A DNA stretch of 64,000 nt from Nitrosopumilus sp. (GTDB taxonomy: Archaea > Thermoproteota > Nitrososphaeria > Nitrososphaerales > Nitrosopumilaceae). The position numbers and the translations under genes were made by a program. The stretch lies in the NCBI GenBank assembly GCA_965197525.1, contig OZ240211.1:96001-160000 (forward strand), in the 5' to 3' direction. This document shows positions 47,781-49,870 of the stretch, piece after piece; the first letter of the stretch is position 1; each line of letters starts with the position of its first letter. Below the pieces are notes generated by a model, which ran no database searches, was not told where the DNA came from, and worked only from the letters and a program-made list of their open reading frames with translations.

Positions 47781-47851
47781 TTTATTTTATATTGTATTTT
47801 AAAAAATGTTTTGAGATCATAACATGGCTGCTGTTCAAAATTATAATATAG

Positions 47852-48348
47852 GGTTCTGTCAAGTTATCGTGCGTTGGGATAGATACCTGACATATAAAAA
47901 AATAAATAATATTATACTATAATATGGTCATTGAAGGCATACAAGTCAATAACACAATTCTACGAACTACAACCCCGAATAGAATACAAAATCCAATTGG
48001 CAGGCCATCCAAAAAACACGAGCACGCAATGTCCCCAATGCGGAAAGAAATTCCAAGAGGCCATGCAACACAGACGTAAAATGTCGTGTAATAATTGCGG
48101 ATTATTTATGGATAGAGATGTAATCACTGCCATGAATATATCACGCAAGCTGTCCCCTAGGTTTAGGGATAGTAGAGGTGACATATATGAAGCAAAGTCT
48201 GACATTTTTGAGTCAGCGATGTCGGAACCCTGCAGACCGGTAATCTGGATAGTCGATATGTCAAAGTCAAGTGATAGGGAGAAGAAATTTTGTTAATACG
48301 TAATAAATTTCAGGTCTATAACCCGACACACGATAACTTGACAGAACC
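47852..48348. mobile_element. Non-autonomous IS6-type mini-element (497 bp) carrying a tnpB 3' fragment
   Basis: ~39-bp TIRs whose first 20 bp are identical (GGTTCTGTCAAGTTATCGTG); 8-bp TSD TAATATAG (47844-47851, 48349-48356); no IS6 transposase inside. Confidence 0.88.
47931..48296 (+). pseudogene. tnpB: TnpB (IS200/IS605 OrfB) C-terminal fragment
   Basis: FYELQ.RIEYK, PKNTSTQCPQCG, CNNCG, MDRDV..AMNI; RuvC-I and most of the protein are missing. Confidence 0.87.
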
Positions 48349-48353
48349 TAATA

Positions 48354-49752
48354 TAGCAATGCGCATAAGTTTCTGTACAGCCAGTTTCTGGACATCGTCG
48401 TCACTGTTACTAACTGTATAGGAAAAGTCAAAAATTTGTTTCATTAAATGTGCACATGTATGAACGTAAAATGCTAAAACAAGTGCAAAAAGTAGAACAC
48501 GTAGGCTGTATATCACGTAGGCTGTCCATGTTGTTGGCATTTATGATGATCCAAACATTTGTCAATACTGCCAAAATATCTTATTGTGATCGTCGTACTG
48601 TTGCCATGTGGTACTGCAGGTTTGCATGTGCTACAAAATCATTTCAGGGGGTACGACAGGCCCTCTCAGACAAACCACGGTCAGGACGTCCACCCAAGAT
48701 AGATAGAAAAATTCTAAACAAAGCAATGCAATGGTGCGAGAAACGCGCATTTACACCAGTAGAACTGCACTACAAGCTAGAAGAGATGTCTGGAAAAAGC
48801 CTTAGCATGTCGCAGATAAGGCGATATGCCAAACATTGGGGATACTCTAGAAAAAAGACACAACCAGTCATGGTTAATAGAACATCAATGGAAGAGGTGG
48901 ACAAATGGAGAGCCGGCCTGTATCAAAAGATTGCAAGATACACAAAGATTGGATATACAATTGTAACACAGGATGAATCACACTTCAAGGACGCTGCAAT
49001 GTCTGCAAAATATTGGGCAAAAACATGCCTACGCATATTCATGTTATGGAGCGGAGGATTTCATAGATTCTCAATGATATGTAGCATGACACAAGACGGC
49101 AGACAGTTTTTTAATCACTGTCAGACTGTCAACACCGTCTCCTTTCTAGAACATATCGACAAGGTGTACAGGGAGGTAGGCAAGATGGTTCTGATACTAG
49201 ACAAGGCACCGTGGCATACATCCCATGATGCAGAAGATTTCTTTGCAGAACGCGACATTATTGTCCTGTGGTATCCTGTAGGACATCCATATCTGAATCC
49301 CGTAGAGGAGGTATGGAGCGTACTCAAACGTGCAATGAATCATTCCATACGTTATGCAGATAAGAATTCACATCTGGCAGCAGTATACGAGTTTATACGG
49401 ATACACAAATTTGATTATAATTTTAAAAAGTTCTGGAAGAGAAGACCGTCCAAGGGAATCATGCGGCCATTCATAAAGATGGATGACGGCCTGCCAAATC
49501 CCGACATTGTATCGCACCAAGTATCGTCTAAACCTGCACAAAAGCAATGATTGTACGAATAGTTTGATTTTCTGTATGTGTCATGTTGGTGCTTGTATTT
49601 TTTTCTAATGTGATATGTATAGCCATACATGAATCTAAATTTTAATTTTCCATACATTTTGCTTTGTGTTTTTGGTATATTCCCCAGACAAGAAGCATTA
49701 TGCATATTGATGGTCCTAAAATACCATGTACAGAAACTTATGCACGCTGCTA
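48354..49752 (+). mobile_element. IS630-family insertion sequence (1399 bp)
   Basis: 26-bp TIRs TAGCAATGCGCATAAGTTTCTGTACA / TAGCAGCGTGCATAAGTTTCTGTACA (23/26 match); TA duplication at 48352-48353 and 49753-49754. Confidence 0.9.
48450..49550 (+). CDS. IS630-family transposase
   Basis: DKPRSGRPPK, GYSRKK, QDESHF, LDKAPWH, LNPVEEVWSVLK. Confidence 0.94.
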   Translation: MHMYERKMLKQVQKVEHVGCISRRLSMLLAFMMIQTFVNTAKISYCDRRTVAMWYCRFACATKSFQGVRQALSDKPRSGRPPKIDRKILNKAMQWCEKRAFTPVELHYKLEEMSGKSLSMSQIRRYAKHWGYSRKKTQPVMVNRTSMEEVDKWRAGLYQKIARYTKIGYTIVTQDESHFKDAAMSAKYWAKTCLRIFMLWSGGFHRFSMICSMTQDGRQFFNHCQTVNTVSFLEHIDKVYREVGKMVLILDKAPWHTSHDAEDFFAERDIIVLWYPVGHPYLNPVEEVWSVLKRAMNHSIRYADKNSHLAAVYEFIRIHKFDYNFKKFWKRRPSKGIMRPFIKMDDGLPNPDIVSHQVSSKPAQKQ

Positions 49753-49870
49753 TATAGTATCTAGGTATATGCATGGGGTATCTATGCATGGTTAAACGTA
49801 TACAAGTATTTGCGTGTCCATACATCATTTCCTTGGAGTCTTGGCGCACTCTTGTGACCTAGCTCTCTTT

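Follow-up and report, generated by a model that had tools for sequence, protein, structure and literature searches.

A 497-bp Mini-Element With IS6-Type Ends and an omegaRNA-Like Scaffold in Nitrosopumilus sp. Is an Internal-Deletion Derivative of a tnpB-Only Family

Results

The window analyzed here is a stretch of 64,000 nucleotides from Nitrosopumilus sp. (assembly GCA_965197525.1, contig OZ240211.1, positions 96,001 to 160,000), and is part of a single 2.21-Mb contig that has a G+C content of 39.6% and is 99% complete. A 497-bp unit lies in this window directly beside an IS630-like element (Table 1). The unit terminates in perfect 20-bp inverted repeats starting GGTTCTGT, for which dinucleotide shuffles expect 0 matches, and the repeat runs on imperfectly to approximately 45 nt (82% complementary). 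A perfect 8-bp duplication, TAATATAG, brackets the unit. The unit thus has the two features used here to recognize IS6-type elements, which are short inverted termini starting GG(T/C)TCTG and a target-site duplication of 8 bp; a terminus start of the GGTTCTGT type is one that we take to be typical of IS6. The inner part of the left repeat is similar to the terminus of a sibling element described below, and the right end holds an additional inverted copy of the terminus, making the two ends asymmetric.

Table 1. Features in and around the mini-element, in window positions.
Feature	Positions	Strand	Remarks
TTA, candidate TAM directly 5' of the left duplication	47841-47843	+	W-T-R in 26/26 family members with a perfect duplication
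Left copy of the 8-bp target-site duplication, TAATATAG	47844-47851		Identical to 48349-48356
Mini-element unit	47852-48348		497 bp
Left terminal inverted repeat	47852-47896	+	Outer 20 bp perfect (47852-47871), inner part imperfect
Retained tnpB 5' region with TATA-like box ATAAAT (47902-47907)	47899-47930	+	Box position conserved
121-aa residual frame	47931-48296	+	PF07282 match
omegaRNA-like scaffold, four helices	48149-48271	+	RNAalifold consensus, pair counts, covariance model R1
Terminal hairpin (predicted)	48266-48342	+	5' arm starts in scaffold tail, 3' arm is the inner right terminus
Right terminal inverted repeat, outer 20 bp	48329-48348	-	Last 6 nt, AGAACC (48343-48348), predicted unpaired
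Predicted guide segment: right duplication (48349-48356) and flank	48349-48368	+	From TAM geometry
IS630-like element	48351-49754	+	DDE_3 transposase 48450-49550; older than the mini-element

The only Pfam match inside the unit was to the TnpB/Cas12f TNB zinc-ribbon domain (PF07282, E 4e-13), on the 121-aa residual frame. The Pfam search of the interior found no transposase, and no DDE_Tnp_IS240 gene is present in the 497 bp; the unit is therefore non-autonomous. The residual frame consists of tnpB codons 1-9 joined in frame to the last 112 or so codons, with the junction at 47957|47958 and CAA microhomology. It holds the zinc ribbon and the RuvC-III motif but neither RuvC-I nor RuvC-II, whereas full-length copies have all three. 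The corresponding frame is broken in the 487-bp sibling. Upstream, the AT-rich stretch contains a TATA-like ATAAAT box approximately 29 nt before the TTG start, and full-length subfamilies have such a box at the conserved place, approximately 27-31 nt before the TTG start. This conserved distance makes transcription of the unit plausible, and we infer that the retained tnpB 5' region acts as a promoter.

The family to which the unit belongs has approximately 40 copies in the genome, and a pattern search found its type of terminus more than 50 times. Pairing of termini delimited approximately 25-30 elements of 1280-1454 bp with GGTTCTGT termini and mostly perfect 8-bp duplications, each filled by one uninterrupted frame of 397-407 aa. 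The commonest full-length type is 1288 bp, and its tnpB stop codon abuts the right terminus. The encoded protein is TnpB, with a TNB domain (E 5e-21) and the RuvC motifs GIDRN, MENL, and DRD; at full length it aligns with TnpB and Cas12f chains of solved structure in the RuvC-II, zinc-ribbon, and RuvC-III regions. At least 29 uninterrupted tnpB copies are present in the genome, an intact one being that at genome 164153-165343.

Transposases of the IS6 type are encoded elsewhere in the genome, as eight DDE_Tnp_IS240 frames of 243-480 aa. One of these, a 403-aa protein, is encoded in a 1970-bp element (genome 746475-748444) that has a perfect duplication and ends matching perfectly over 24 bp; in its first 18 terminal bases this element is identical to one tnpB-only subfamily. 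A second frame belongs to a 3.1-kb element, alongside a methyltransferase and an HNH gene. No autonomous element with exactly the 20-bp terminus of the window unit was found in this genome, nor did the 99%-complete genome have any match to Y1 TnpA (PF01797) or serine TnpA (PF00239). The full-length copies, the DDE_Tnp_IS240 frames elsewhere, and the lack of matches to either TnpA therefore identify the parents of the unit as compact, IS6-ended, tnpB-only elements that are themselves non-autonomous, and not as IS200/605 elements. An IS200/IS605 or IS607 identity was likewise rejected for the unit itself, given the absence of PF01797 and PF00239 matches, the inverted ends, and the 8-bp duplication. 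The arrangement of tnpB within IS6-type ends also occurs in other genomes of the genus and order, in which the TnpBs are only 30-65% identical.

Alignment of the unit to full-length copies showed that its positions 1-106 and 104-428 match their two ends (the first 106 or so nt and the last 390 or so nt, respectively). The unit is an internal-deletion derivative, or MITE, of the IS6-ended tnpB-only family; like other MITEs, it is short and has inverted ends, a duplication, and no transposase coding capacity. The window's mini subtype has only two copies in the genome, the window unit and a sibling of 487 bp at a different locus (genome 736087-736573). The sibling is 84% identical and has the same deletion junction, so that copies sharing one internal deletion at different loci are represented by this one sibling. 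The identical junction at a second locus indicates that the deletion came first and that the mini form then transposed. Two other mini types (378 bp and 388 bp) each occur as a pair, with one copy per pair having a perfect duplication, and scaffold-bearing mini-elements of all subtypes number approximately 10 in the genome. Across at least six independent deletion types, the 3' remnant is never shorter than 115 nt, whereas the shortest 5' remnant is 25 nt. The scaffold was present in 10 of 14 short terminus pairs; four short IS6-type elements are without it, so movement does not require it.

The IS630-like element starts at approximately 48351, inside the right duplication, and has many copies elsewhere; its five or six terminal bases also appear on the left of the unit, at the end of the left duplication copy. 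Because the IS630 tip bases are duplicated on both sides, the IS630-like element must have arrived first and the mini-element second, landing on a pre-existing junction of flank and IS630. In more than 40 congeners (approximately 70% identity), the outer flanks are 18-225 bp apart with nothing between them, and the IS630-like element is also absent there. This empty site excludes that the unit is what remains in situ of a larger nested allele. The left junction of the insertion is carried by contigs of three DNA runs (two metagenome samples from one study); among these contigs no empty allele was seen and none joins across the unit, although contigs cannot show absence.

An earlier sequence-only reading of the locus had described a 497-bp unit with inverted ends and a perfect 8-bp duplication, and this description was accurate. 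Its assignment of the ends to the IS6 type is supported by the perfect 20-bp GGTTCTGT termini together with TAATATAG. The absence of a transposase was borne out as well, PF07282 being the only match in the unit, as was the view that the cargo is the omegaRNA-bearing 3' end of tnpB. That reading had also proposed that the unit could be mobile as such and had suggested looking for same-sized copies, for an IS6 transposase, and for an intact tnpB. The 487-bp sibling means that the unit is not a single copy, its identical junction at another locus and the pairing of two further mini types agree with mobility as a unit, and both the transposase (8 DDE_Tnp_IS240 frames) and intact tnpB (at least 29 copies) are present elsewhere in the genome.

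For the RNA, we aligned 29 3' regions, 25 of them from this genome, where seven belong to mini-elements, and the other four from two congeners. The RNAalifold consensus has four helices and 31 pairs. Across these pairs, 97.1% of cells were paired, compared to 24-39% when partners were slid by 1-3 columns; changes on both sides were found in 16 pairs, compared to 0-4 in the slid controls, and none of 500 shuffles reached the observed values. Some of the compensatory changes alter amino acids, so the constraint acts on the RNA. These data describe a structured, covarying RNA that overlaps the tnpB 3' end, as is the case for TnpB omegaRNAs. A suggested pseudoknot between the helix-3 loop and the scaffold tail would share positions with helix 2, and the columns concerned are invariant.

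None of the 31 pairs is broken in the window copy, which departs only once from the nearly invariant columns, by a C-to-T change that gives a G-U pair. Covariance model R1 recovered 51 genome loci; the window copy scored 152 bits (rank 15), within the range of copies on intact tnpB, although this score is not fully independent because the window copy was among the 28 aligned sequences from which the model was built. The sibling scored 138.5 bits and has 3 broken pairs, and a helix is lost in two other mini-elements (helix 3 in m358 and helix 1 in a 208-bp element). A search of Rfam 15 gave no relevant match up to E 10, only a chance match to a Plasmodium RNA. The single-sequence fold of 48150-48368 was not exceptional (z -1.47) and is not informative alone. 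Between the mini siblings, the scaffold had 0.151 substitutions per site compared to 0.149 for the tnpB remnant outside the scaffold (pooled Fisher p 0.73), a comparison possibly confounded by exchange between copies. The scaffold is thus not changing more slowly than the remnant, and nothing points to purifying selection since the deletion.

Family members with a perfect 8-bp duplication, oriented by tnpB, were surveyed for motifs beside the insertion. The three bases 5' of the left duplication were W-T-R in 26 of 26 members (TTA 10, TTG 10, ATA 3, ATG 3; binomial p approximately 4e-28 against a background of 0.088), and no motif was found at the mirror position of the same elements. All 4 mini-elements with a duplication, including the window unit, have TTA. 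Among 3 IS6-type elements that have a duplication but no scaffold, 2 show no motif on either side, and the autonomous 1970-bp element is one of these 2. Elements with near-identical termini and a TnpB that is 32-34% identical have TAT at the same position (twice), and a third TnpB lineage has AACC-TTY there (three times), both being small samples. Mini-elements obey the orientation rule although they have no tnpB, so that the rule goes with the right end and its scaffold, which they retain, rather than with a nuclease gene in cis. In an empty site, W-T-R would sit directly 5' of the duplication and right flank, which is the place required of a TAM if the guide starts just outside the right end. 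The one-sided W-T-R beside the duplication therefore points to a candidate TAM and an adjacent guide derived from the flank.

The family-wide conserved block ends with GTCAAAGTCAAG at 48271, and the stretch beyond it is subfamily-specific, with a length of 0 to approximately 100 nt. RNAfold predictions for tails from 12 subfamilies gave one architecture with GTC...GAC closing, despite differing spacer lengths and termini. The predicted terminal hairpin closes onto the right end and leaves AGAACC unpaired before the flank. Subfamilies with different termini show matching changes in the internal arm (for example, AAG/CTT compared to GGG/CCC), and congeners have no spacer, their terminus directly adjoining the scaffold. 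The internal stretch has no genomic target at 2 or fewer mismatches outside homologous copies; matches at 3 mismatches were chance matches inside tnpB. The 20-mer 48349-48368 is unique in the genome, and no off-targets of a flank guide were found there, the other IS630-like tips differing from it at 2-4 positions and having no motif. The predicted hairpin, the lack of an internal target, and the one-sided motif therefore favor a guide derived from the flank, from 48349 onward, and on balance we think it somewhat probable that the guide lies there.

Discussion

Elements of the IS6/IS26 family have GGTTCTG-type termini and 8-bp duplications, and their classical transposases are approximately 230 aa long. 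The window unit resembles these elements and their MITEs in its termini and duplication, and DDE_Tnp_IS240 proteins with such ends are encoded in the genome. The local transposases, unlike the classical ones, are 383-403 aa with an N-terminal SWIM zinc finger, and the window unit differs from IS6/IS26 MITEs in that its cargo is a guide-RNA scaffold. As in ISDra2-type TnpB/omegaRNA systems, an RNA with a multi-helix scaffold overlaps the tnpB 3' end, with a left-flank TAM and a right-flank guide (the last two being predicted here), and the family's protein matches solved TnpB/Cas12f chains over RuvC-II, the zinc ribbon, and RuvC-III. Unlike in ISDra2-type systems, the scaffold and the presumed guide are separated by a predicted hairpin of variable length that includes the inverted-repeat end, there is no Rfam match, and the presumed target includes the 8-bp duplication.

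Mini elements that carry a guide RNA and no protein are known from IS200/IS605, where the PATE-like elements keep their ends and often an omegaRNA for use in trans (Meers et al. 2023, bioRxiv 10.1101/2023.03.14.532601). The window unit is similar to PATEs in that it is protein-less, keeps its ends and an omegaRNA-like scaffold, and would need TnpB from elsewhere. PATEs have asymmetric LE/RE hairpin ends, no duplication, and a Y1 TnpA that acts on single strands; in contrast, the window unit has IS6-type inverted ends and an 8-bp duplication in a genome without Y1 TnpA. TnpB branches associated with DDE transposases have also been described; according to the parts of that paper considered here, inverted ends surround all six branches, solo TnpBs have the same ends, the tnpB 3' end is within 250 bp of the transposon end, and mobilization in trans was proposed (Altae-Tran et al. 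2023, PNAS, PMC10691335). Like those solo TnpBs, the TnpB of the present family lies inside inverted ends resembling those of transposase-bearing elements. The main text of PMC10691335, in those parts, names IS630 alone, for one branch, whereas the ends here are IS6-like; the window unit also differs from the systems covered there in being a protein-less deletion derivative, and the same parts describe no one-sided motif next to an 8-bp duplication. The window unit is not a new kind of element and combines two described kinds, namely guide-RNA-only mini elements and TnpB on DDE-type transposons.

The explanation that we consider probable as a whole is that of a MITE, a deletion derivative with ends mobilized in trans and a flank-guided omegaRNA. 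One internal in-frame deletion of approximately 0.8 kb in a compact IS6-ended tnpB-only transposon would have given rise to the mini unit. The two IS6-type ends, the tnpB 5' region including the TATA-like box, and the scaffold in full were evidently spared. The unit then evidently transposed onto the boundary of the IS630-like element and made the 8-bp duplication. An IS6-like DDE transposase from elsewhere would have moved it, the candidate being the 403-aa protein of the 1970-bp element. Transcription starting at the retained putative promoter may pass the scaffold and the terminal hairpin and continue beyond the right end into the flank, and the product would be an omegaRNA whose guide is the duplication and flank from 48349. 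One of approximately 30 intact TnpBs could load this RNA in trans and cut the uninserted allele (TTA, TAATATAG, and flank), which would favor retention or spread of the insertion. Retention or spread by cutting of the uninserted allele has been described for IS200/605. Functional use of the unit's RNA in trans is possible, but judging from the sequence we would put it at somewhat short of an even chance. Counting against the explanation as a whole are the 3 broken pairs of the sibling, the helix loss in two mini-elements, and scaffold change that is no slower than that of the remnant. That no autonomous element here has exactly the window's 20-bp terminus also counts against it, as do the unexceptional single-sequence fold, the variable insert of 22-100 nt that separates the conserved scaffold from the presumed guide, and a TAM rule of 100%, which is stronger than a simple homing advantage predicts.

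The first of these observations are equally what would be seen if the same deletion derivative were an inert relic, with an unused scaffold that was kept because the deletion is recent or because deletions tend to remove the 5' part. The equal rates of the siblings, the broken pairs, the missing helices of m358 and the 208-bp element, and the four short IS6-type elements without a scaffold all fit such a relic. However, at least six independent deletion types all left 115 nt or more of the 3' end although the 5' end could shrink to 25 nt, the scaffold is present in 10 of 14 short terminus pairs, the orientation-specific W-T-R rule holds in 4 of 4 mini-elements with a duplication, and all pairs are intact in the window copy, whose score is on a par with that of copies on intact tnpB. 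We therefore regard an inert relic as unlikely, while still giving it some weight. It is a less probable alternative that W-T-R is a target preference of the transposition machinery and not a TnpB TAM, in which case the guide need not be derived from the flank. A motif shared by 100% of datable insertions is more easily explained by a requirement of the mechanism than by selection acting afterwards, and one version, an asymmetric transpososome, draws on the extra internal terminus copy that makes the right end different from the left. This preference would not account for 2 of 3 scaffold-less IS6-type elements with duplications, the 1970-bp one included, lacking the motif on both sides, or for near-identical termini going with TAT when the TnpB is only 32-34% identical and with AACC-TTY in a third lineage (small samples).

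The sequence-only reading was partly supported overall, in that the IS6 ends, the cargo, and the mobility of the unit stood, whereas capture, the nested alternative, and the fixed guide did not. It had proposed that a DDE element captured an IS200/605 scaffold, but the parents were already IS6-ended and tnpB-only, in a genome without Y1 or serine TnpA. The captured omegaRNA was said to contain a fixed internal guide (48265-48310; approximately 48272-48310 given the end of the scaffold) that would program TnpB to a constant target. In typical omegaRNAs the guide directly follows the conserved scaffold, and a variable insert between the two, as in the present family, is unusual for omegaRNAs such as the ISDra2-type RNAs; family-wide conservation does stop at GTCAAAGTCAAG and give way to subfamily-specific sequence, as a guide would. 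We nevertheless find a captured scaffold with a fixed guide very improbable. The stretch is predicted to pair with the right terminus in 12 subfamilies, with matching changes, congeners have no spacer at all, no target exists in the genome at 2 or fewer mismatches outside homologous copies, and the one-sided motif, which points to the flank, would be left unexplained. Of the omegaRNA fold that the same reading had said should be sought, a four-helix covarying RNA was found, and a match to an Rfam family was not. Its own alternative was that an IS200/605 element inserted here into an IS6 element and that the nested pair then lost its interior in place. Nothing beyond the co-occurrence of IS6-type ends and a tnpB fragment speaks for this history, and it has almost no probability left: a longer nested IS6 and IS605 allele was not seen in relatives, more than 40 congeners having instead an empty site with flanks 18-225 bp apart, the identical junction recurs at a second locus, the full-length parents are single compact units with the tnpB stop abutting the right end, and the genome has no TnpA of either type.

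The mini-element described here is thus best explained as a trans-mobilized deletion derivative, and it shows that the reduction to a guide-RNA-only element, known for IS200/605, also occurs in a TnpB family on IS6-like DDE-type ends. That TnpB or its RNA-protein complex directly helps to choose the landing site of an IS6-like DDE transposon is quite doubtful. On this view every scaffold-bearing element, the protein-less ones included, lies exactly beside the TAM of the nuclease. If TnpB does pick the landing site, a TnpB-type TAM reader would in nature have become coupled, in a primitive way, to DDE transposition, and the mini-elements would parasitize both the transposase and TnpB. At approximately 500 bp, the unit is a compact test object for how OMEGA nucleases cooperate with duplication-making transposons.

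Residual frame and ends of the 497-bp unit

The tnpB deletion in the 497-bp unit was exactly in frame, so that the native start now leads into a residual frame of 121 aa made up of the zinc ribbon and RuvC-III. Because the corresponding frame was broken in the sibling, a 487-bp element with an identical deletion junction, the reading frame was probably kept by chance.

Both ends of the unit appeared compound: inside the outer 20-bp terminus, each had what remains of the sibling-type terminus, without its last 5 nt, with a mirror-image gain of about 12-13 nt at both ends. Nested insertion does not account for this gain, and simple recombination likewise does not account for the pattern.

Features of the unit and other elements of the host genome
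Feature	Position	Description
Residual tnpB frame after the in-frame deletion	window 47931-48296	121 aa
Compound ends	window 47852-47896 and 48304-48348	
IS630-like element	window 48351-49754	366-aa DDE_3 transposase
L049	genome 699962-703092 or 703151	IS6-like transposon; alternative right ends 59 bp apart
L052	genome 883991-884841	851 bp; perfect 24-bp IS6-type ends, perfect duplication

Other elements and flanking motifs

L049 possesses a 383-aa transposase (SWIM-finger/DDE_Tnp_IS240), and its cargo comprises an HNH endonuclease together with an N6/N4 DNA methyltransferase. L052 contained neither the omegaRNA-like scaffold nor a transposase; its sole content was short frames with a high proportion of E, K, L, N and Q. 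The IS630-like neighbor is present in several copies in the host genome, and its 4 copies at about 92% identity in G007, another genome of the genus, suggest a recent exchange.

Genome-wide, 42 elements had good ends, and in 16 of them matching duplications were absent. Many of these retained the left W-T-R motif, the candidate TAM, as expected if inter-copy recombination or replicative events had swapped right flanks. Other TnpB lineages were found within IS6-like ends with perfect 8-bp duplications (L071 and L073 in G021; L064, L108 and L115 in other genera). Immediately 5' of the duplication, where W-T-R would stand, these carry other motifs (TAT; AACC-TTY), in keeping with TAMs that are lineage-specific.
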